A DNA stretch of 64,000 bases from Candidatus Marinacidobacterium sp. (lineage in GTDB: Bacteria; Acidobacteriota; Vicinamibacteria; Marinacidobacterales; Marinacidobacteraceae). Both the position numbers and the translations under genes were made by a program. Positions 7,817 through 18,271 of the stretch are shown here, one piece after another (the stretch's first letter is position 1; the number at the start of each line of letters is the position of its first letter). Location: NCBI GenBank assembly GCA_965204755.1, contig OZ242011.1, forward strand, positions 2,656,001-2,720,000, written 5' to 3'. The notes below the pieces were generated by a model that was given only the letters and a program-made list of their open reading frames with translations, searched no databases and was not told where the DNA came from.

Positions 7817-9082
7817 ATGGCAGTCCCCGGAGACGCGCCCTCCGGCGGCCGGCGCGTGTACTTGGACTACGCCGCAACGACGCCGGCCGACCCGGGCGTG
7901 ATCGCCGCCATGACGGAGTGCCTCGGGCGGGAGGGCGTGTTCGGGAACCCCGCGTCCCGGACGCACGCCTTCGGGCGGGAGGCGTCCGAGCGGGTGGAGA
8001 CGGCGCGGGAGTCGGTGGCCTCCCTGATCGGGGCCGAACCCTCCGAGGTCGTCTGGACTTCCGGCGCGACGGAATCCACGAACTTGGCCGTCAAGGGCGT
8101 GGCGTTGGCCGCGACCGCGTCCGGAGCCGGCGAGCGGCGACGCCACATCGTCACCTCCGCCGCCGAGCACAAGGCGACCCTGGACTGCTGCGGCTGGCTG
8201 GAGGGCCGCGGCTTCGAGGTCACCCGCCTGCGCCCGGACTCCGCCGGCGCCATCACCGCGCGGGCCGTGGAAGCGGCCCTGCGCCGGGACACCGTCCTCG
8301 TTTCGCTGATGGCGGTCAACAACGAAGTCGGGACGATCACCGACCTCGGCGCGATCGGCGCGGTCACTCGCGCTCGGGGCATCGTCTTCCACGCTGACCT
8401 GGCGCAGGCCGCGGCGCGGCTTCCCGTGTCCGTTGATTCGCTCCGGCTGGACTTGGCTTCGCTCAGCGGGCACAAGATGTACGGCCCGAAGGGCGTGGGG
8501 GCGCTCTATGTCCGCCGCTCCGTGCGGGACCGCATCGAACCCCAAGTCCACGGCGGGGGACAGGAGTTGGGCCTGCGCGCCGGCACCCTCCCGACGCACC
8601 AGATCGTCGGGATGGGCGCGGCGGCGGAGTTGGTCCGGCGCCGGCTGGACGAAGACCGGGAGCGGGTGGCCGCCCTGGAGCGGCGCCTGCTCGACTCCCT
8701 CGGCGGCGTGGACGGCTTCTTCCGCAACAGCGACGGGGCGGACCGGGTCCCGGGGATCGTCAGCGTCGGCTTCGAAGGCGTAGCGAGCGAGTCTCTCCTT
8801 GTGGCGCTTCCGGACCTGGCGCTCTCCACCGGGTCCGCCTGCACCTCCCGCCGAGTGGAACCGTCGCATGTGCTCGCCTCCCTGGGTGTCCCGGAAGACC
8901 GGGCGCGTTGTTCGGTTCGGGTGAGCCTCGGGCGGTACGCCACGGAAGCCGATGTGGAATACGCGGCCCGGCGACTGGCCGCGTGCGTCACCGGTCTGCG
9001 CGCCCTCGCCTCGGTGGCGCCCGCGGCGCCGCGCTATCTCGCCGAAGATCCGGCTGACCTGCCTGTCGGAGTGTCCGCCTGA
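7817..9082 (+). CDS. dndA: Cysteine desulfurase, IscS/DndA type
   Basis: YLDYAATTP, FGNPAS, TSGATES, SGHKMYGPKG (PLP Lys), GSACTS (catalytic Cys). Stop overlaps the dndC start (TGATG). The dndA symbol rests on context. Confidence 0.88.
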   Translation: MAVPGDAPSGGRRVYLDYAATTPADPGVIAAMTECLGREGVFGNPASRTHAFGREASERVETARESVASLIGAEPSEVVWTSGATESTNLAVKGVALAATASGAGERRRHIVTSAAEHKATLDCCGWLEGRGFEVTRLRPDSAGAITARAVEAALRRDTVLVSLMAVNNEVGTITDLGAIGAVTRARGIVFHADLAQAAARLPVSVDSLRLDLASLSGHKMYGPKGVGALYVRRSVRDRIEPQVHGGGQELGLRAGTLPTHQIVGMGAAAELVRRRLDEDRERVAALERRLLDSLGGVDGFFRNSDGADRVPGIVSVGFEGVASESLLVALPDLALSTGSACTSRRVEPSHVLASLGVPEDRARCSVRVSLGRYATEADVEYAARRLAACVTGLRALASVAPAAPRYLAEDPADLPVGVSA

Positions 9083-10260
9083 TGCCCTTCCCGCTCCCCG
9101 TCCTCGACACGGCGCCACCGGATGTATCCGGAGTGGCTGACCGCTTGGGCGAGACGATGCAGGCGATCCGGCAGGCATATCTCCGGCGGGACCGGCATCC
9201 GTGGGTCGTGGCGTACTCCGGCGGCAAGGACTCGACGCTCCTCCTGCAACTCGTGTGGGAGGTCGTCGAGTCGCTGCCGGAGTCCGACCGCCGCCGGCAG
9301 ATCGTGCTCGTCGGCAACGACACCCTCGTCGAGTCGCCGCTCGTCATCGGTCACCTGCGGGGAAGTCTGGAAACCATCCGGCGGGTGGCCCGGAAGCGGA
9401 GCCTTCCGATCAATGTGCGCATCACGAAGCCCCACATCGACCAGACCTTCTGGGTCAATGTCATCGGCCGCGGTTACATTCCTCCTACCCGCAACTTCCG
9501 CTGGTGCACCGACCGGATGAAGATCCGCCCGACGAGTCAACTTCTCGAACAGTTGGTGCGGGCGAACAAGAAGGCGGTCCTGCTCGTCGGAACGCGCAAG
9601 GCGGAATCGGAAACGCGCCGGCGCAACATGAAGAGGCACGGCGCGAGCGCCCGGCGCATGAACCGCCACAGCAGCGTGGAGGGCTGCTGGATGTTCGCTC
9701 CGCTGGCCGACCTCAGCGACGAAGAGGTCTGGATGATCCTGATGCAACGCAACCCCCCTTGGGGCGGCACGCATCAGGACTTGATCACTCTCTATCGAAA
9801 CGCTGGCGGCGGAGAGTGCCCGCTCGTCCTCACCAAGGCCGATGCGCCCTCGTGCGGGACGACTTCGCCCCGTTTCGGCTGCTGGACATGCACCGTCGTG
9901 ACCAAAGACCGCAGCCTCCGGGGCCTCATAGACTCCGGCCACCGGGACGCCTCCGCCATGGAGCGGCTCTTCGAATTCCGCGAGTGGCTTGTCGAACTTC
10001 GGGAAGACGACCGAAACCGGGACCGGACGCGCCGCGACGGAAGCGTGAAGCGCCGCAGCGACGGCTCCTATGTCATGGGCCCCTTCACGCTCGAGGTTCG
10101 CGAAAAAATCCTGGAACGGCTGCAGCAACTCGAGAAGGCGGTCGGGGTCGACCTGATCCAGCGCGGCGAGATGGATCTCATCCACGACATCTGGCGCCGT
10201 GATCGAGTCCAAGAAGAATGCCGCTCGGCGTTCCGTGAAGCCTTTGCGATTTCCGCGTGA
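9082..10260 (+). CDS. dndC: DNA phosphorothioation sulfurtransferase DndC (PAPS reductase family)
   Basis: PWVVAYSGGKDS PP-loop, DTLVESP, FWVNVIGRGYIPPTRNFRWCTDRMKIRP, ECPLV...PSCG...RFGCWTCTVV, GPFTLE; these match DndC signatures. Confidence 0.9.
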   Translation: MPFPLPVLDTAPPDVSGVADRLGETMQAIRQAYLRRDRHPWVVAYSGGKDSTLLLQLVWEVVESLPESDRRRQIVLVGNDTLVESPLVIGHLRGSLETIRRVARKRSLPINVRITKPHIDQTFWVNVIGRGYIPPTRNFRWCTDRMKIRPTSQLLEQLVRANKKAVLLVGTRKAESETRRRNMKRHGASARRMNRHSSVEGCWMFAPLADLSDEEVWMILMQRNPPWGGTHQDLITLYRNAGGGECPLVLTKADAPSCGTTSPRFGCWTCTVVTKDRSLRGLIDSGHRDASAMERLFEFREWLVELREDDRNRDRTRRDGSVKRRSDGSYVMGPFTLEVREKILERLQQLEKAVGVDLIQRGEMDLIHDIWRRDRVQEECRSAFREAFAISA

Positions 10261-10303
10261 TCCTGTGAATCTGATCCCTCGGACTTCCATTCGAGCGGAG
10301 GCC

Positions 10304-12070
10304 ATGTCGTTCTCGGACCTTTTCGAGATGGGGACATTCTCCGTTCCGTGGCACCAGCGGCACTATGATTGGGACAAGCCCCATGTGACGGCCCTCCTCA
10401 ATGACATCGAGGAGGCACGCCGGGAAAGCCGGGTCTGCTATTTCCTCGGTTCGATCATGTTGATCGACTCGGGTGGCGACCACTGGGAAATCAACGACGG
10501 GCAGCAGCGAATGGTCACGGTTTCCCTGATCATCGCCCGGCTCTGTCGACTGGCGTTCGACGAGAACCCCGACGCGCAAAGAGTGAAGATCGCCTTGAGC
10601 AAGTTGTTCGTCGTCGAACGCGACGCAGTGTGTAGTCTCGACGACGCCGACGGCTACCAAGCACGCATCACGCCTCCTCGGAACGATCTCACTCGATATC
10701 ACCAGATCATCCGCGGCAACCCCATCGGCACGAATGGGAAACTCACCACTGCATGGAAGGAGATCGATGCGTTTTTGACCAGTATGTCGCTCTCCGACGC
10801 CTATCGGTACTTCGACTATTTGGTCAAGAAGACAGAAGTGGCAGTGCTTCGCGTTCCGAAAGTCGTGGACCCGAACGCGGTCTATGAAACACTCAACTTC
10901 CGAGGTAAGAACCTGGACGATGTGGATCTGATCCGGAATCACCTCTACTCGTTCTTCTCCGATGACGCAGACGAACATCGGCGTGAGGTGGTGCGCGAAA
11001 ACATCGAGAGGATCGGCGATGCCCTCACCCGAAGAGGAAAGTCTAGGAACAGGAGTGCCGAAGAGTATCTGAGGTGTCATACGCAGTGCCTGTTCGGTCA
11101 CATGCGTAGCCAGCACTTCTATCGCGACTTCCGAAGAGAGATGCGGGCGTATCTGAACAACCAGCGGACGTCCAGACGCACAGACGCCGCCTTGGTGTTC
11201 CAACTTATCGAGAAGTTGTCCGATCGCGCGGCTCTGCGCCTATTCCGAACGATCACCACACCAGGGCCGGACCCCGAGGCCGTAGAGGGCTTCGAGCGTC
11301 GCGCGGGGACAACGGGAAGCCGCCGGCGGCTGGCAGTGTTTCTGAGGGAACTGCGTAACTACACCGTAGTACAACCGCTGCTGTTCTCCATGCTCATGGT
11401 GTACCGAAGGGAGAGTGACGGTCGCCGGCTGCGTCGCATTGCGAATGAGGTCAACCGGAGTGTCGAGCGGCTTACGGCTTTCGTGCTTCGGACGGCTTTT
11501 GTCGTTCCGAAGTTCGAACCTTCCCATTATGAGGAGAAGTTTGCGGATCTCGCGCGACAGATGATGGATGCGGGTGAGACGTCGGAAGAGGCAATCATCG
11601 ATCTGCTCCGTGAGTGCGATGTGCACGGAGTCTTGGATGACCAGCAGTTTCGGGAATCCATGAAACGCGTGAAGAGAATGACCGGATCCGCAAGGATCAG
11701 GTCGTTCCTCCTTGGTGTCAATGCGACCGTGGCAGGTGACCCGAGCCTGTTGAACGAAGAGCGGTGCACGCTGGAACATATCCTCCCAACGGGTGCTGAG
11801 CATTGGAGCGGCTGGACGGGCTTCAAGACAGTGGACGAGAGCGAGTATGCTCATCGCTTGGGGAATCTGACGCTGATGGGCCCCGATGACAACAAACCGG
11901 GTAAGCGGTTCAATGCGAGTTTCAATGCCAAGAGAGGCAGTTACGAGCAGAGTTCGGTAGCGATGACGAGAGAAGTTGCCAAGCAGGACGAGTGGAACCC
12001 GGATGTGATCGCGCGTCGGGAGGATGACCTGATTGAGCGGGCGATCGAAGTATGGACCTTCGAGGCCTGA
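10304..12070 (+). CDS. DUF262 + DUF1524 (HNH) protein, GmrSD/SspE-like nuclease
   Basis: FSVPWHQRHYDW, YFLGSI, EINDGQQR, VYETLNFRG (DUF262); TLEHILP...LGNLTL...N (DUF1524 HNH). Confidence 0.88.
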   Translation: MSFSDLFEMGTFSVPWHQRHYDWDKPHVTALLNDIEEARRESRVCYFLGSIMLIDSGGDHWEINDGQQRMVTVSLIIARLCRLAFDENPDAQRVKIALSKLFVVERDAVCSLDDADGYQARITPPRNDLTRYHQIIRGNPIGTNGKLTTAWKEIDAFLTSMSLSDAYRYFDYLVKKTEVAVLRVPKVVDPNAVYETLNFRGKNLDDVDLIRNHLYSFFSDDADEHRREVVRENIERIGDALTRRGKSRNRSAEEYLRCHTQCLFGHMRSQHFYRDFRREMRAYLNNQRTSRRTDAALVFQLIEKLSDRAALRLFRTITTPGPDPEAVEGFERRAGTTGSRRRLAVFLRELRNYTVVQPLLFSMLMVYRRESDGRRLRRIANEVNRSVERLTAFVLRTAFVVPKFEPSHYEEKFADLARQMMDAGETSEEAIIDLLRECDVHGVLDDQQFRESMKRVKRMTGSARIRSFLLGVNATVAGDPSLLNEERCTLEHILPTGAEHWSGWTGFKTVDESEYAHRLGNLTLMGPDDNKPGKRFNASFNAKRGSYEQSSVAMTREVAKQDEWNPDVIARREDDLIERAIEVWTFEA

Positions 12071-13467
12071 CGGACGCCGCGAGTGTGCGGCGTCGCGTGG
12101 AATCGGACCTGAAACTGCCGGCGCCACTTCTGCCGTATCAGTGGGAGGGAGTGGCGTTTCTTTGTCGATCACCGGCCGCGCTCTTGGCGGACGAGATGGG
12201 GCTGGGGAAGACGGTGCAGGCCGCCGTAGCGCTGGCGCTGTTGTTGAACGGCGGATCGAGCGTACGGCGCGTCCTGGTCGTGGCTCCGGCATCCCTGACT
12301 CTGAACTGGATGGAAGAGATCCGTCGCTGGGCACCATCGGTGACCGTGCGGCGTCTGACCGGGAGCGACCGGGATCGGGCGGCCTGGTACATCCTTCCGG
12401 TACCGGTTCTCGTGGGATCGTACGAGCAGATTCGGGAGGACGGTCTGGACCGCATACCGCGGGGCGCTTTCGACCTGGTGATTCTGGACGAGGCGCAGCG
12501 CATCAAGAACGAGGCGTCGCGGACTTCACTCGCTTGCCGACTCTTGCCCCGGGAGCGGGCTTGGGCACTGTCGGCGACACCTCTCGAGAATCGGGAGGAA
12601 GACTTGGTGTCGATCTTCGGGTTCCTTAATGTACGGGCCGATGGAGGGCGGCCGGAGGATCTGGGAAGAGCCCTTGAAACCGTGATGCTGCGCCGTCGAA
12701 AATCGGAGGTTCGGGCGGATCTGCCGCCCGTCATCATCCAGGATGTCCGGGTGGAGATGGATCGGCCTCAACGAGAGCGGTACGACCGGATGTGGGTCCA
12801 TCGGACCGAGGGGCTGGAAGCGGGGCGGAATCGGAGTGAGATCCGGGGGATGCTGCTCGGGCTGATCACGCGTTTGAAGGCGGTGTGCAACTTCGACGAG
12901 CGCACGGGCTGCTCGGCCAAGTTGGAGGGGCTGGAGGCGGTCATCGATGGGGCCGGCCCGACGGCGCGCATCTTGGTCTTCTCCCAGTTCGTCTCGACTC
13001 TGCGGTGGATTTCTGATAAACTCAGAGTTCCACATGGTCTCGTCATCGGGCCGATGACGATGGAGGCTCGGCAGGAGGCCATGAGCGATTTTCGGCTGAA
13101 GCCGTCCCCCAGAGTCCTGCTCGTGTCCCTGAAGGCGGGCGGTGTCGGCCTCAACCTTGGAGAAGCCACTCACGTAGTGATGTTCGATCGGTGGTGGAAC
13201 TCTGCCGTGGAGTCGCAGGCCATTTTTCGCGCCCACCGGCACGACCGCCCGGATCCGCTCCATGTGATCCGGTTTCTCACCGTCGAATCCATCGAGGAGC
13301 GAATCGCAGCGATCATCGAGCGGAAGACATCACTGTTCGATGAGGTGGTCGAAGGCGCGAGCAGCCGACGACCGAAACACGACGGGCTCACGGAAGCAGA
13401 CCTGAGATACATGCTCGACTTGGCTTCCGCCGGGCCAGACCACGAGTCGCACTCAGTCACGGCGTAG
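12052..13467 (+). CDS. Compact SNF2-family helicase/translocase
   Basis: LLPYQWEG, LADEMGLGKT, ILDEAQRIKN, LSATPLEN, LVFSQF, GGVGLNL, DRWWN, QAIFRAHR. Confidence 0.92.
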   Translation: MDLRGLTDAASVRRRVESDLKLPAPLLPYQWEGVAFLCRSPAALLADEMGLGKTVQAAVALALLLNGGSSVRRVLVVAPASLTLNWMEEIRRWAPSVTVRRLTGSDRDRAAWYILPVPVLVGSYEQIREDGLDRIPRGAFDLVILDEAQRIKNEASRTSLACRLLPRERAWALSATPLENREEDLVSIFGFLNVRADGGRPEDLGRALETVMLRRRKSEVRADLPPVIIQDVRVEMDRPQRERYDRMWVHRTEGLEAGRNRSEIRGMLLGLITRLKAVCNFDERTGCSAKLEGLEAVIDGAGPTARILVFSQFVSTLRWISDKLRVPHGLVIGPMTMEARQEAMSDFRLKPSPRVLLVSLKAGGVGLNLGEATHVVMFDRWWNSAVESQAIFRAHRHDRPDPLHVIRFLTVESIEERIAAIIERKTSLFDEVVEGASSRRPKHDGLTEADLRYMLDLASAGPDHESHSVTA

Positions 13468-13484
13468 AGCGCTGGGAGGCGCGT

Positions 13485-14312
13485 ATGGCAAGCATCAAAG
13501 AGTATCGGTCGCTCCCGCTGGGCGACCTGGTCATCGGCAAGGCTCAAGTTCGGGTAAGCGAACTCGGTGCCGGCATCGACGAACTGGCGGAGAGCATCCG
13601 CGTACAGGGCCTGTTGCAGCCGATCGTCGTCTGCCAAGCCGAGGACGGAGAGCGGTGGGAAATCCTCACCGGTCAGCGCCGTTTCCTGGCTCACCAGCGG
13701 TTGGAGCGCGACTCCATCTACGCCGCGATCTTGGACGAGCGCGTCGGCGAGGCCGAGGCCAAAGCGATCTCGATCACGGAGAATCTGGTTCGCCGGAAAC
13801 TGACTGGACGGGATTTGAAGGACGGAATCCTGTTCTTGTACAACCGCTACGGGAGTGTTCGGGATGTGGCCGACAAGACGGGGATCTCCCAGAGCCAAGT
13901 GCGGGCCAATGTGAAGTATCCGCGGCTTCACCGCCGTCTTCAGCAACTGGTCGACGACAACGCTGTGCCGATCAATGTGGCGGTCAGGGCAAATGACGCC
14001 GCAATGGACGCGAGCGGTGAAGTCAACCCGGACGAGGCCGAGAAACTCGCCCGGGAGATGGACCCGATGGCCGATGTCCAGCGCCGCAAGTTGGTTCAGG
14101 ATCGCCGAGCACATCCGGAGAAGTCGGTCGACGATGTCATCGAACATGCCAAGACCGGTGGACAGATCTTCCAAGTCACTACCACCGTCTCGGCGCAGAC
14201 GCACGCCGCGATCCAGAGAGTGGCGAAGGAAGAGGGACTCAACCAGGACGAGGCGACCTCGATGTTGATCGAGGAAGCACTCGCAGGTCGAGGCGCCTTC
14301 GAGGAGGAATGA
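13485..14312 (+). CDS. ParB/RepB/Spo0J-family protein (ParB N-terminal domain + HTH)
   Basis: ELAESIRVQGLLQPIVV, EILTGQRRFLA (GxRR), ITENLVR, HTH SVRDVADKTGISQSQV. GGGAGG RBS upstream. Confidence 0.85.
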   Translation: MASIKEYRSLPLGDLVIGKAQVRVSELGAGIDELAESIRVQGLLQPIVVCQAEDGERWEILTGQRRFLAHQRLERDSIYAAILDERVGEAEAKAISITENLVRRKLTGRDLKDGILFLYNRYGSVRDVADKTGISQSQVRANVKYPRLHRRLQQLVDDNAVPINVAVRANDAAMDASGEVNPDEAEKLAREMDPMADVQRRKLVQDRRAHPEKSVDDVIEHAKTGGQIFQVTTTVSAQTHAAIQRVAKEEGLNQDEATSMLIEEALAGRGAFEEE

Positions 14313-15031
14313 TGACCGCGCCCCGATCCTGGGATCTCGGGCGTCTTCGGATGTCTGTGGGGTACGGCAGGCAGAAGCGCGGACGGCACTACTCTCCGGT
14401 CGAAGTGGGCGAGTGGGTGATGCAGGAACGGAGACGCGGGGCGTCGCTCGCCGATTGCGCGGCGACTCTCAACCTCGATGGCGTCGGCCATATCGGGCGG
14501 TTTCCTCGTCTTCTGAGACTGCCTGAAGATGTCCTCCACCTCGTGGATTGGGGTACGCCGCGAGGCGGCATCGGTTTCTCGGCGGCGGTGGAACTGGCGA
14601 AACTGCGAAGCCAGGGTGACCAGCGGGAAGTCGCGGATGCCGTACTGAAACATGGCCTCACGAGTCGAGAGATTCGGCAGATGGGCCAACTGAGGCAGCG
14701 GTCTGACCGCACCGTGACGGAGGCGATCGAGGACGGACTCCGGATGCGTCCGAAGGTCGTGCGCCGTCATGTCTTCCTCGGAAGTGTCTCGGCGCGCATT
14801 CGCGACTACATGGCCGATCGAGAACAATGTCAGCGTGACGCCCTGCTGCGGCACAGCATCGACAAAGTTGGACTGCGAGAAGTCACCGGCAGGTTGGGCC
14901 CGCAGATCTTCACACTGGTCGGCGGCGACGTCTTCGCGAAGTCGATGCGCGACATCGGTGTCGACGACATTGAGTCGAAGTTGCTCGATGCGATGGAAGA
15001 GGAGGTTTCTCGTGGGCGAGCCGAAGGTTGA
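14309..15031 (+). CDS. Hypothetical protein resembling a ParB/KorB-type HTH region without the N-terminal ParB domain
   Basis: SPVEVG...SLADCAATLNL...RLLRLPEDVLHLV...IGFSAAVELAKL...QREVADAVLKHGLTSREIR resembles the ParB central domain. ATGA overlap with the upstream gene. Confidence 0.6.
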   Translation: MMTAPRSWDLGRLRMSVGYGRQKRGRHYSPVEVGEWVMQERRRGASLADCAATLNLDGVGHIGRFPRLLRLPEDVLHLVDWGTPRGGIGFSAAVELAKLRSQGDQREVADAVLKHGLTSREIRQMGQLRQRSDRTVTEAIEDGLRMRPKVVRRHVFLGSVSARIRDYMADREQCQRDALLRHSIDKVGLREVTGRLGPQIFTLVGGDVFAKSMRDIGVDDIESKLLDAMEEEVSRGRAEG

Positions 15032-16040
15032 TGTGTTCGCCAACGGCGCTGTTGCTCTTGGCGATCACATAGTGTGCGACGGGTATGTGATGGGGCGGGC
15101 CTATCGTGTCCAGACACATATACATGACGACCACATGGCGGGCTTCAACACGAGCAAGGGGGAACAGGATTTCCTGTTGAGTCCCGCGACTTACGATCTC
15201 TTGGTCGCCGAGAAGGATGCCGAGTTGCCGTATCGGAGCAACTTTCACGCGTTGGACGCGGGCGGCAGCAAGTCGTTGTTCGATGGCTCCTCGGTGGAAC
15301 TGGCGCCGTCGAACCACATGCTCGGTGCGTGTCAAGTGGCTGTGACCTTGCCCGGCGGCGGCCGGCTGGGGTACTCCGGCGACTTCGGATGGCCGATCGA
15401 GCAGGTCATCGAAGTGGACGAGTTGGTGGTGGACAGTACTTACGGTAGTCCGCGGAGCGTGAGGTCTTACGGCCAAGAGGAAGTGGAGGCGCGACTCTGG
15501 GAGATCATCTGCGCTGCGCTGCGGGTGGGGACCGTCCATATCCGCGCGCACCGGGGAACGATCGAGCGAGTGCTGCATCTGCTGGGTCAGGGGACGGGGG
15601 TTCCCATTTTGGCGTCGGATCGCCGGATTCGAGAGGTCGAGGTCTACCAGAAGTACGGCTACGCGGTTTGTGACTTGGTTTCGATCGAGTCGGAGGCCGG
15701 AAGGGAGGCGCTGAAGGAGAGGTCGTATGTGCGCGTGTACTCGAAGGGTGACGGGTTTCCGAATGAACTTCTGGAGGGCACTTCAGTAATCTGCAGTGCC
15801 TTCATGTGCGGGCCTGACGATCCGGTGCTACAGCACTCGGAACGGGTCTTTCGCGTGGCCCTCTCGAACCATGCGGATTTCGAGGAAACGCTGGCGTACG
15901 TCCGGGAGACGGGAGCGAAGCGGGTGGTTACGGACAACACGCGCCTTCACGGATGCGAGTTGGCGCTGGCGCTGAACGAGCGGCTCAGTGGCGTGGAAGC
16001 GTCACCGTCGTCCAATCGGCCCACCCCGCGACGGGAGTAG
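15012..16040 (+). CDS. Metallo-beta-lactamase-fold beta-CASP nuclease
   Basis: THIHDDH (HxHxDH), NHMLGA, GYSGDF, VDSTYG, LSNHADF. GTG start after GGAGG, overlapping the upstream stop. Confidence 0.82.
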   Translation: MGEPKVDVFANGAVALGDHIVCDGYVMGRAYRVQTHIHDDHMAGFNTSKGEQDFLLSPATYDLLVAEKDAELPYRSNFHALDAGGSKSLFDGSSVELAPSNHMLGACQVAVTLPGGGRLGYSGDFGWPIEQVIEVDELVVDSTYGSPRSVRSYGQEEVEARLWEIICAALRVGTVHIRAHRGTIERVLHLLGQGTGVPILASDRRIREVEVYQKYGYAVCDLVSIESEAGREALKERSYVRVYSKGDGFPNELLEGTSVICSAFMCGPDDPVLQHSERVFRVALSNHADFEETLAYVRETGAKRVVTDNTRLHGCELALALNERLSGVEASPSSNRPTPRRE

Positions 16041-16096: not shown

Positions 16097-16924
16097 TTAC
16101 TCGGCTTCGACCGGGTTGCGGAGCGTTCCTACGCGTTCGATTTCGACTTCCACGAGGTCGCCGGGTTTCAGGTAGAGGGGCGGTTTCCGGGCGGCGCCGA
16201 CGCCGGAGGGGGTGCCGGTGGCGATGACATCGCCGGGCCGGAGCGGGGTGATGCGGGAGAGGTAGGCGATGAGTTCCCGCACCGGGTAACTCATCCGGGA
16301 GGTATGGCTCCGCTGGACGACTTCGCCGTTCAGCCGGGTTTCGATGGAGAGCGCCTGCGGGTCGGGGATCTCGTCGGCGCTCGCGATCCAGGGGCCGAAA
16401 CCGCCGGTGCGGTAGAAGTTCTTCCCGGGGCCGAACTGGGTGCTGTGGGCCTGGTAGTCGCGCACCGAGGCGTCGTCGAAGCAGGAATACCCGGCCACAT
16501 GGTCGAGCGCCCGGTCTTCCGGGATGTGGCGGCCGGGTTTGCCGATGACGACCGCGAACTCGCCTTCGTAGTCCAGTTTCTCCGAGACGCGGGGTCGCAG
16601 CAACGCCTCCCCGTGTCCGACGAGGCAGACCGGGAACCGGGTGAACAGGGTGGGGTAGTCGGCCTTGGCCTTGCCGGTTTCGATCCGGTGGTCCTCGTAG
16701 TTCAGCCCGACGCACCAGATGGCTCCAGGGCGGGGGATCGGCGGGGCGAACCGCGCCCCGTCCAGCGGCGCCCCGGCGGCCCAGTCCGGTTCCGACTCCG
16801 GGAGCCCCCCGTCGAGCCGCGCCCGGAGCGGGCCGTCACCGGGCAGCCGGACGAACCGCTCCCCGTCGGACGAGATGGCGACCGGCGTCTCCGCGCCGGC
16901 GAGGAGGAGTGTTGCGAATCTCAT
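16097..16924 (-). CDS. Fumarylacetoacetate hydrolase family protein
   Basis: CVGLNYEDH, LDYEGE, DASVRDYQ, GKNF, GDVIATGTPSGVG. Confidence 0.92.
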   Translation of the reverse strand: MRFATLLLAGAETPVAISSDGERFVRLPGDGPLRARLDGGLPESEPDWAAGAPLDGARFAPPIPRPGAIWCVGLNYEDHRIETGKAKADYPTLFTRFPVCLVGHGEALLRPRVSEKLDYEGEFAVVIGKPGRHIPEDRALDHVAGYSCFDDASVRDYQAHSTQFGPGKNFYRTGGFGPWIASADEIPDPQALSIETRLNGEVVQRSHTSRMSYPVRELIAYLSRITPLRPGDVIATGTPSGVGAARKPPLYLKPGDLVEVEIERVGTLRNPVEAE

Positions 16925-16951
16925 GGAGCGCGGATGCTATCTTCCTCCGTC

Positions 16952-18271
16952 ATGAGTACCGAACCCACGGCGCGCAAGGAGCACGTCGTCATCCGCAGCG
17001 AAAATCGAATCCGGTTTCTCGGGCGGGTGAACACTCGAGCCCATCGCGAATTTCTGTACTGTTTGTCGAACGGCGTCGAGCGCGGTTACAAGGACTTCGT
17101 CCTCGATTTCGCCGCCAGTGAACGGGCGTACCTGTGGGGGATGCTTCCCCTGCTTGCCGATGTGGAGCGGCTGCGGCGCGAGCATGTATCCGTCGAAGTC
17201 GTCTTGCCGACGGAGCCGAATTGCCGGCGCCTCTTTCTGAAGACGAATTGGGCGCACTATCTCGACCCCGCCCACTACGAAAAGGTGCATGCGGACCTCG
17301 TTTACACCGGGTACGGTCGCCATGTTCCGGCCCACCGCTTCACCGACGGAACGACTCAAAAAGCCTTGGTGGACGCCTCCTTGGATGTCCTCATGAAGAA
17401 TCTCCGGCTGGATCGCGTCTCCCTTCATGCATTGGAGTGGTCGCTGAACGAGATTACGGACAATGTCTTGAACCACGCGGAATCTCCGGACGGCGGGCTC
17501 GTCCAAGTGAATACCTTCTCCGAGGGGCTACGGGTTGAGATCGGTGTCGCAGACTCCGGTCAGGGTGTTCTTGCTTCCCTGCGACAAGGACATTCGCATC
17601 TCCGTACGCACGAAGAGGCGCTCTACGAGGCCATGAAGCCCGGCACGACCCGCGATCCGCGGGTTGGGCAGGGCAACGGGATCTGGGGCACGATGAGCAT
17701 TGCCAAGGCGTCCGGCGGTAGTTTCGAGATCACTTCGGGCTCGGCCGAACTCAAGGTGTCACAAGACGAGGTGAGACCGTACAAACGCTCTCGGCGATTG
17801 AGTTTCTGCGGCACCTTCGTTCGGGCCGATTTCCGGCTCGACTCCGGGGCTGCGTTCGAAGAAGTCTTGGGAGTGCCGGGAAGCCGCGCCGATCTCATCG
17901 AAACTTCGTATGAAACCGACGACGGTGACGCCGTGGTCCTGCGGCTCAATCGGGAGTCGTCCGGATTCGGCACCCGGTGGGCCGGGCGGGAGTTGCGGAC
18001 GAAGTGCCGGAACCTCCTCGACGCCGCGCCGGAGAAACCGCTGTTGCTGGACTGGGAGGGAATCGCCCTCGTGTCCAGCAGTTTCGCGGATGAACTCATG
18101 GGCAAACTGTTCGTGGAACTCACGCCGCTGGCGTTCGCGGCGAGGGTCCGCAGCAAGGGGATGGAGCCGCTCGTCCGCGGGCTCGTGGACAAGGCGATCC
18201 TGCAGCGGGCGGCGCAGGCCGCGGCGGAGAACGACGCGGCTTCCGGCGGGACGGAATCCGGCGCGCCCTGA
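16952..18271 (+). CDS. STAS-like + HATPase + STAS-like (DUF4325-type) protein
   Basis: EITDNVLNHA, VADSGQG, GQGNGIWG (GHKL boxes); C-terminal LLDWEGIALVSSSFADELMGKL. Confidence 0.7.
   Translation: MSTEPTARKEHVVIRSENRIRFLGRVNTRAHREFLYCLSNGVERGYKDFVLDFAASERAYLWGMLPLLADVERLRREHVSVEVVLPTEPNCRRLFLKTNWAHYLDPAHYEKVHADLVYTGYGRHVPAHRFTDGTTQKALVDASLDVLMKNLRLDRVSLHALEWSLNEITDNVLNHAESPDGGLVQVNTFSEGLRVEIGVADSGQGVLASLRQGHSHLRTHEEALYEAMKPGTTRDPRVGQGNGIWGTMSIAKASGGSFEITSGSAELKVSQDEVRPYKRSRRLSFCGTFVRADFRLDSGAAFEEVLGVPGSRADLIETSYETDDGDAVVLRLNRESSGFGTRWAGRELRTKCRNLLDAAPEKPLLLDWEGIALVSSSFADELMGKLFVELTPLAFAARVRSKGMEPLVRGLVDKAILQRAAQAAAENDAASGGTESGAP

Follow-up and report, generated by a model that had tools for sequence, protein, structure and literature searches.

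How do the enzymes that write phosphorothioate (PT) into DNA find their target, and how do effectors read a mark that is present at a fraction of sites? A seven-gene cassette in the genome of Candidatus Marinacidobacterium sp. bears on both questions. It is located at positions 7817-16040 of a 64,000-nucleotide (nt) stretch, hereafter called the window (G000:C1:2656001-2720000), of a single-contig genome of 3.98 Mb with 71.7% guanine and cytosine (GC). PT is, to our knowledge, the only natural modification known for the DNA backbone. The locus raises the question of how a DndC could act as a PT writer with neither DndD nor DndE in the genome, and of what the four genes further downstream contribute. 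On balance, it is considered to be a horizontally acquired PT-type modification and defence cassette composed of two separable modules that often travel together. Module 1 (7817-12070) would be a compact writer/reader unit, and module 2 (12052-16040) a second effector. That the locus serves PT-based defence at all is regarded as probable.

The cassette consists of seven open reading frames, all intact and on the plus strand, designated A (dndA), B (dndC), C (DUF262/HNH), D (SNF2), E (ParB), F (ParB-HTH, with a helix-turn-helix) and G (beta-CASP metallo-beta-lactamase, MBL). The stop codon of dndA overlaps the start of dndC (TGATG, 9080-9084), a gap of 43 nt (10261-10303) separates dndC from the DUF262/HNH gene, and the latter overlaps the SNF2 gene by 19 nt (12052-12070). 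A gap of 17 nt (13468-13484) precedes the ParB gene, which shares ATGA (14309-14312) with the ParB-HTH gene, and this in turn overlaps the nuclease gene by 20 nt (15012-15031). The initial annotation, made from the DNA letters, had described seven co-oriented genes with tight junctions; all six junctions proved exact and its seven domain labels were all upheld by hidden Markov model (HMM), motif or fold. The lowered GC content that it had noted from about position 10200 relative to the flanks was recovered as well: the sliding GC profile drops to 0.58-0.63 across ∼10-16 kb of the window, and against a genome mean of 0.717 only dndA is host-like (0.731), the remaining six genes ranging from 0.57 to 0.65 (dndC 0.651, DUF262/HNH 0.574, SNF2 0.637, ParB 0.615, ParB-HTH 0.629, MBL 0.619).

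Gene A (7817..9082, plus strand) encodes a dndA-like cysteine desulfurase of the IscS family with 421 amino acids (aa) and a score of 258 bits for Pfam Aminotran_5. Among the PADLOC models, SspA (472 bits) and DndA (464 bits) scored about equally and IscS models scored similarly, and the score of 390.5 bits against TIGR03235 (DndA) lies under the cut-off of 480 of this profile. Gene B (9082..10260, plus strand), the sole dndC in the whole genome, encodes a short DndC of 392 aa, a PP-loop sulfurtransferase. It scored 364.2 bits against TIGR03183 (DndC; cut-off 290.4) and covers profile positions 3-365 of 447, with just 30.6 bits for the SspD model and just 49.9 bits for BrxP in PADLOC. When it was aligned with the long DndCs of two other loci (L142 and L134), the C-terminal tail of ∼80-100 aa of the long form was found to be missing. 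The SGGKDS motif and Cys142, Cys202, Cys246, Cys258, Cys267 and Cys270 of DndC were invariant in the 32 members of its clade (see below).

Gene C (10304..12070, plus strand) encodes a DndI-like protein of 588 aa in which a DUF262 domain (ParB-fold NTPase) is followed by a DUF1524 domain (HNH), identified as Pfam GmrSD_N (87 bits) and GmrSD_C (72.5 bits). It shows the domain layout of DndI and SspE, with an N-terminal DUF262 carrying DGQQR and a C-terminal DUF1524 HNH domain. The best solved relative was DndI (9jfl, E-value 3.9e-16; match mainly within residues 1-233), and SspE models gave just 25-49 bits. In an alignment of 30 sequences DGQQR was invariant or nearly so, and E491, H492, N521 and N537 were invariant.

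A writer of DndA and a 392-aa DndC that works with neither DndD nor DndE had been proposed in the initial annotation, and neither protein was found in the 3.98-Mb genome. The best match to DndD (TIGR03185) reached 20.7 bits against a cut-off of 245.85, and the PADLOC DndE model PDLC02669 gave no match in the genome, the same model scoring 75 bits in a control genome (G020) next to its DndD; TIGR03184 (DndE) also gave no match, yet the controls were equally silent with this profile. The cassette is therefore not one half of a split canonical Dnd locus: neither DndD nor DndE was found in the genome, and the second PT-type locus that was found is an Ssp and not a Dnd locus. The annotation had further stated that dndB, dndD, dndE and sspBCD are not recognisable in the window. 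This held for the searches made, in which PADLOC detected no SspB or SspC among the eight island proteins and none of the matches obtained when the whole genome was searched for DndD, DndE, DUF4007 and DGQHR lay inside the window; not every open reading frame of the 64 kb was scanned.

The second locus (L093; G000:C1:2434740-2447383, minus strand) lies ∼210 kb upstream of the window. It encodes SspB (DUF4007), SspC (792 bits), SspD (360 bits) and an SspA-like desulfurase 40% identical to the product of gene A, with these four genes at 2.440-2.447 Mb, and in addition a 615-aa protein with a weak DGQHR match, a 587-aa DndB-family protein and a 552-aa SNF2 protein. The sspB gene is split over two reading frames near a proline-coding run, reflecting either a genuine frameshift or a sequencing error at a homopolymer. 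In this organism, Ssp may be a further writer of PT. The DGQHR and SNF2 genes beside sspBCDA were considered as SspFGH and this was ruled out, as published SspF has a Walker A motif and SspH is FtsK-like.

A scan of one genome per species yielded 80 related loci, of which 29, from many phyla, carry a DndC 59-69% identical to that of the window. A DUF262-HNH gene directly follows dndC in 27/29 of these loci, a dndA homologue directly precedes it in 22/29, and in 12 loci the DUF262-HNH gene overlaps the dndC stop by 4 nt (start calls being heuristic). The DndCs of this clade have lengths of 383-410 aa. With TIGR03185, a DndD above the cut-off was missing from 28 of the 29 further genomes of the clade; in the remaining one, G020, a canonical dndD-dndE lies apart from the trio locus, ∼35 kb away. 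Three control genomes with a DndD-linked short DndC gave DndD scores of 234-270 bits, and the controls overall ranged from 234 to 488 bits.

In a quick maximum-likelihood tree (IQ-TREE) of 103 DndCs, the 32 trio DndCs were placed on one side of a branch with an SH-aLRT support of 99. Their sister (L054) also has a distant DUF262-HNH gene, and together they are nested among short DndCs whose next genes are DndD/PbeC-like and DndE-like (L038, L066). The DUF262-HNH gene thus occupies the slot that DndD-DndE hold in the nearest DndC relatives. From these sequence comparisons, the trio dndA-dndC-DUF262/HNH is taken to be a monophyletic and widely transferred clade. Because the tree was rooted by midpoint only, we infer the direction of change, by which the DUF262-HNH gene would have replaced DndD-DndE, with corresponding caution.

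The missing tail of the short DndC was considered as a docking site for DndD/E. This was rejected, because the 50 next-closest DndCs (44-52% identity) are equally short; since the DndD-linked short DndCs of L038 and L066 are also tailless, the loss of the tail is not what freed DndC from DndD/E. These relatives (L038:11050-17519, L066:11228-14956; Rhizobium, Kingella and others) encode a DndD/PbeC-like ABC ATPase after the short DndC. In L038 a DndE-like gene and another PbeC-like ATPase come next, and then an FtsK/HerA-like protein with a match to mad8 and to the C-terminal part of SspH models. The arrangement is another little-described Dnd variant. Trio loci that lack module 2 carry instead a GIY-YIG gene, in 10 loci, and a gene of the DndB family, in 15 loci (125 bits for Pfam DndB). 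In L005 (13078-14690) and 14 further loci (e.g. L007, L013, L018 and L026), a GIY-YIG protein of ∼110 aa and a DndB-family (DGQHR) protein of ∼425 aa come next, and both a DndB-like gene and module 2 are present in L006 and L019.

The complex of DndC with the DUF262-HNH protein was modelled and obtained a score of 0.63 (runs 0.61, 0.63 and 0.72), with 0.02 for the best of three controls. In the calibration of this score, 58 of 80 solved complexes and 2 of 110 mismatched pairs attained this mark; as the complex was modelled with its own alignments, these counts hold just roughly. The runs shared at least 77% of their contacts, and the pLDDT (predicted local distance difference test) of the partners was at least 82. 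On the DndC side, the modelled interface comprises the last helix (residues 360-391), residues 316-324 and residues 118-121, and on the side of protein C residues 116-160, 236-244, 307-330 and 364-368, a region located between the DUF262 and HNH domains. Because no solved chain related to DndC was matched in the Protein Data Bank copy searched, it is unlikely that the pass reflects memory of a solved structure. The model supports a physical coupling of DndC and the DUF262-HNH protein.

The DUF262-HNH protein might be a restriction nuclease only, like DndI and SspE, with DndA and the short DndC writing PT by themselves, as reported for TdpC. DndI as the closest solved relative and the conserved NTPase and HNH residues would fit such a role, as would a natural strain (run X8, see below) that lost gene C and kept dndA-dndC, a restriction gene being expected to go first. 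It is also stated in PMC12914056 that tdpC alone is enough for PT synthesis as a single-gene writer. This alternative, although it survives best, is judged unlikely: gene C stands exactly where the nearest relatives have DndD-DndE, in many loci it overlaps with the stop codon of dndC, and its product is predicted to bind the C-terminus of DndC. These three observations would also fit a protein that acts in restriction alone, since binding to the modification enzyme is common among restriction subunits. A function of the DUF262-HNH protein as a PT-gated nuclease is held to be fairly likely, and its being needed for writing as well is put forward tentatively.

Module 2 starts with gene D (12052..13467, plus strand), which encodes a minimal core of an SNF2-family double-stranded DNA translocase (471 aa; Pfam SNF2-rel_dom 145.7 bits, Helicase_C 63.3 bits). 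Its best solved relative was a helicase of the Snf2/Rad54 family (1z63, E-value 4e-41), and PADLOC models of DpdE gave 150-172 bits over the helicase core. The product of gene E (13485..14312, plus strand; 275 aa) is a ParB/Noc-type protein with N-terminal nucleotide-binding motifs and an HTH, which scored 54.3 bits against ParB_N (cut-off 26.3) and 68.8 bits against TIGR00180 (cut-off 58.45). Aligned with Noc (7ng0, E-value 9.3e-12) it keeps QPIVV, GQRR (GERR in Noc) and ENLxR, and the sequence thus places it among the ParB/Noc CTPase-fold proteins with putative nucleotide binding. Gene F (14309..15031, plus strand; 240 aa) encodes a ParB-HTH-like protein without the GxRR motif, for which HMM searches gave weak HTH_ParB/DUF7119 matches. 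Its AlphaFold2 (AF2) model (pLDDT 89.1) matched the DNA-binding region of Spo0J, ParB, Noc and KorB as top Foldseek results, with a modest E-value of 4e-3, a probability of 1.0 and ∼110-125 aligned columns, and an orthologue that is fused to the nuclease in L125 scored 33.2 bits for HTH_ParB (cut-off 22.6). Gene G (15012..16040, plus strand), with a GTG start, encodes a beta-CASP MBL nuclease of 342 aa carrying HxHxDH. The residues of this motif (H36, H38, D40 and H41) together with H102, D124 and H287 were invariant in eight sequences. Its AF2 model (pLDDT 82.8) had Artemis, SNM1A, Apollo, CPSF73 and RNase J as top Foldseek matches (E-value ∼3e-14, template modelling score 0.6-0.7, 330-450 columns), and the protein thus shows the two-domain MBL and beta-CASP nuclease fold with an HxHxDH metal site.

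Of the 29 clade loci, eight contain D-G in full (in L019 upstream and on the opposite strand), three hold fragments and 18 have none of these genes. The full A-G order recurs in nine other loci (L004, L006, L009, L017, L024, L027, L095, L099 and L179), so the gene order is not due to chance, in agreement with the recurrence on which the initial annotation had made its proposal depend. When metagenomes were searched with aligned sequences of the nuclease, 190 relatives were obtained, and in the best 80 loci the order D-E-F-G was almost always kept where the contig allowed it to be seen. Fifteen of the 80 loci had at least 5 kb on both sides, the other 65 being too short to judge their neighbours. 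Eight of the 15 adjoin a long DndC, and in two of these, L142 and L134, with tails of 55-116 aa, PADLOC confirmed DndB, DndC, DndD and DndE with DndA beside module 2, which in L142 follows dndCDEA. Three adjoin the short trio, two SspB-SspC-SspD (L167 and L168) and one a lone 279-aa 3'-phosphoadenosine-5'-phosphosulfate (PAPS) reductase (L125); the lone-PAPS-reductase type was found directly after G in 8 of the 80 metagenome loci. In L125 (5169-10401) a compact module 2 with F and G fused (582 aa) is followed by the 279-aa PAPS reductase (BrxP-like, 56 bits) and then by a transposase.

The nuclease family comprises at least 1190 protein clusters, whose names do not go beyond 'hypothetical' and 'putative mRNA 3-end processing factor'. 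Gene G had no match in a plasmid collection (72,556 records) or a phage collection (50,697 records), and the cassette appears to be confined to uncultured environmental bacteria; both observations would explain why it escaped screens of cultured strains. Module 2 clusters in certain sub-clades of the DndC tree and is therefore considered to be inherited together with the writer. Module 2 is best read as a plug-in effector tied to PT writers and exchangeable like DndFGH, Pbe, SspE and SspFGH. That it depends on the mark of the writer is thought reasonably likely.

Alternatively, module 2 could be a defence system of its own that is blind to PT and lies near PT genes through the clustering of defence genes in islands. 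The separability of the modules and L172, in which no writer is present, are in line with this, and a further SNF2 gene beside the Ssp locus of the same genome indicates that SNF2 genes are common in such islands. There is also a precedent in PbeAC, which was once thought to be PT-dependent and was found with dndCD in just 42% of cases (PMC6459918). An independent module 2 is nevertheless improbable, as 14 of the 15 well-flanked loci adjoin a writer of the PAPS reductase family, of four kinds, usually within one or two genes and co-oriented. This is far above the genome background of 4.3% for dndCD and 3.0% for sspBCD (PMC12914056), and the concentration of module 2 in sub-clades of the DndC tree speaks for inheritance with the writer.

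Among 24 genomes of the same family the nuclease was found in one (G055), where all of A-G are present, 44-63% identical and in a stretch of lowered GC; the one same-genus genome was without it, and six weaker nuclease matches of 20-30 bits are probably other MBL proteins. Near-identical copies of the cassette were present in DNA runs from several studies (18 runs listed, none of them RNA). In run X8 (record 28, a contig of 17,147 nt), 10415 is joined to 13997 by a clean deletion of 3.58 kb (10416-13996) in a related strain, so that C and D are lost together with the 5' part of E, whereas dndA, dndC, F and G remain. Record 21 of run X5 shows 503 differences and 16 gaps over 10062-13804, far more than the 1-4% divergence of the flanks, which may reflect allele exchange, misalignment or pseudogenisation. 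Run X3 covered just 8784-15997 at depth 2 with zero differences; as the flanks were uncovered, it allows no conclusion on mobility. L021 (14401 onward) retains only SNF2 and 44% of the ParB gene, and L011 has dndA-dndC followed by the ParB-HTH gene, without a DUF262-HNH gene. Together with L015, these loci are signs of decay in some relatives.

Such observations might mean that no DNA phosphorothioation takes place and that the locus is a decaying remnant, or that the short DndC makes a different modification or has RNA as its substrate. The lack of an ATPase partner, the deletion in X8, an internal stop in the dndC of L015 and the truncated module 2 of L021 could be explained in this way, and isolates with a PAPS reductase and without dndD gave no PT signal (PMC12914056). 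The probability of this is nonetheless considered small: the seven open reading frames of the cassette are intact, gene B lies above the curated DndC cut-off, the catalytic residues do not vary between phyla at an overall identity of 59-69%, a pattern that speaks for purifying selection, and the partners, DndA and in sister loci DndB-family genes, are typical of PT systems. Least probable of all is the model of the initial annotation, a single seven-gene system in which SNF2 replaces the DndD/SspC motor and the ParB proteins and nuclease are dedicated effectors, which would suit the co-oriented genes with short or overlapping junctions, their full order in nine other loci and the missing DndD/E, and which is contradicted by the 18 of 29 clade loci without any of D-G and three with fragments only, by the inverted upstream position of D-G in L019, by the natural strain X8 that keeps dndA-dndC without SNF2, and by D-G beside complete DndBCDE(A) and SspBCD clusters, where SNF2 is not the missing motor because those clusters already own DndD or SspC.

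For the preferred two-module cassette, the following sequence of events is proposed. In module 1, DndA would take sulfur off cysteine, and the short DndC would activate the backbone phosphate with ATP and insert the sulfur. In the prediction of the complex, the DUF262-DUF1524 protein clamps DndC at its C-terminal helix. If it works like DndI and SspE, its ParB-fold NTPase and HNH nickase would read PT and nick DNA that lacks it, and it probably also gives DndC a hold on DNA. In module 2, the plug-in second effector, the ParB/Noc-type protein and its ParB-HTH partner would engage DNA, the bare SNF2 core would translocate and the beta-CASP nuclease may degrade DNA without the mark. A bolder version, advanced as a possibility and less probable than the reading as a whole, is that a ParB-fold NTPase-HNH protein has replaced DndD-DndE and, bound to DndC, both guides writing and reads the mark, and that at the same time the widespread four-gene cassette is a universal PT-dependent effector for Dnd, Ssp, trio and lone-PAPS writers, in which a ParB-type clamp tells marked from unmarked DNA. 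In this version, module 2 would be a fifth PT restriction module beside DndFGH, Pbe, SspE/DndI and SspFGH.

Several points weigh against this reading. For every member, PT, nuclease activity and phage defence are deduced from sequence and models, and the binding of DndC is a matter of model confidence and would equally be expected if protein C were merely a restriction subunit. All other established writers of the Dnd, Ssp and BREX-4 (bacteriophage exclusion) type depend on a P-loop ATPase as partner (PMC12914056). The evidence that links module 2 to writers comes from 15 loci which, after near-duplicates (L134/L174/L138 and L167/L168) are taken into account, amount to ∼12 distinct cases, and the query was built from DndC-linked copies. 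One of the 15 loci, L172, has a DndA-like gene only and no writer. As SspBCDA is encoded in the genome, module 2 could read PT made by Ssp instead of PT made by DndC. Finally, the X8 deletion indicates that the cassette can decay and that gene C is dispensable for viability, and the internal stop in dndC of L015 points in the same direction.

If the proposal is correct, DndA, DndC and one DUF262-HNH protein would be far simpler for dissecting writing and reading than DndBCDE-FGH, and ParB-type nucleotide-gated DNA clamps would be tied to immune sensing. Some of the many 'orphan' clusters of dnd and ssp genes may be explained by the SNF2-ParB-ParB-beta-CASP cassette; ∼84% of sspBCD are reported to have no known restriction partner (PMC8092258) and most Dnd modules to lack DndFGH (PMC10853773).

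Downstream of the cassette follows a host-like FAA-hydrolase gene (16097-16924, minus strand, GC 0.70). Beyond it, a low-GC gene (16934-18271, plus strand, GC 0.626) encodes a protein with HATPase_c and DUF4325 (STAS-like) domains that matches the N-terminal part of the PADLOC DrmA model (116 bits) and phrog_3364. Split from the cassette by the FAA-hydrolase gene, it may be a separate acquired defence gene. No tRNA gene was found within positions 1-30000 of the window, and the search for direct repeats flanking the island gave none that was convincing, just short two-copy families.

Comparison with known systems shows that module 1 most resembles IscS-DndBCDE-DndI of Salmonella, in which a cysteine desulfurase and DndC are likewise combined with a DUF262/DUF1524 protein carrying DGQQR and an HNH nickase, DndI, a PT-sensing nickase (PMC11662687). 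In contrast to that system, DndB, DndD and DndE are missing from the cassette, its DndC is ∼100 aa shorter, and its DUF262-HNH gene lies directly after dndC and encodes a protein predicted to bind DndC. With SspABCD-SspE it shares a desulfurase, an enzyme of the PAPS reductase family and a DUF262-DUF1524 protein, in SspE a PT-sensing nickase, whereas its enzyme is of the DndC type and SspB and SspC are absent from the cassette. For the TdpABC system, published in 2025 (Nat Chem Biol), TdpA and TdpB are reportedly a hexameric translocase and a nuclease and not ParB, SNF2 or beta-CASP proteins. TdpABC is a precedent for a PT writer without DndD/E or SspB/C. Differently from BREX type 4, no match to BrxC, BrxZ or BrxL was detected among the eight island proteins, and BrxP gave the low score on gene B mentioned above.

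Module 2 has a partial counterpart in the Dpd 7-deazaguanine system, in which the ParB-like ATPase DpdB occurs with the SNF2 protein DpdE, so that a ParB-fold NTPase accompanies SNF2 in modification-based defence. The cassette differs from Dpd in the absence of DpdA/TGT and DpdC, in gene D being a bare core of 471 aa compared to ∼850-1300 aa for DpdE, and in DndC being the modification enzyme. The difference of the effectors from DndFGH, Pbe, SspE and SspFGH claimed in the initial annotation was borne out by domain content and by PADLOC, which gave no match of genes D-G to the Pbe, DndFGH or SspFGH families with a library that includes PbeC and SspH models. PbeA has phospholipase D (PLD) and helicase domains, PbeC is SMC/ABC-like, and PbeB and PbeD have 66 and 152 aa (PMC6459918); module 2 was rejected as PbeABCD on these domain descriptions. 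DndH and SspH are FtsK/HerA-like (PMC8092258, PMC10853773), and module 2 differs in its domains from DndFGH and SspFGH as well.

In the searchable literature, no description was found of a DndC with a DUF262-HNH protein and without DndDE, nor of an SNF2-ParB-beta-CASP cassette; the supplementary tables of PMC12914056 and Dataset S1 of PMC10853773, which lay outside this search, may list such loci. The nearest mention is a single sentence in PMC12914056, in which small clusters of DndC, P-loop genes and a DUF262 gene are named as a 'potential' system. A PT-type system is of a known kind, and it is the writer architecture and the effector cassette for which no description was found. DndCDEA-PbeABCD, DndFGH and SspFGH resemble module 2 as multi-gene effector cassettes beside PT writers that are horizontally exchanged and loosely co-evolve with the writer, and for the two effectors proposed here a parallel is offered by SspE and SspFGH, which are paired additively with a single writer (PMC8092258).

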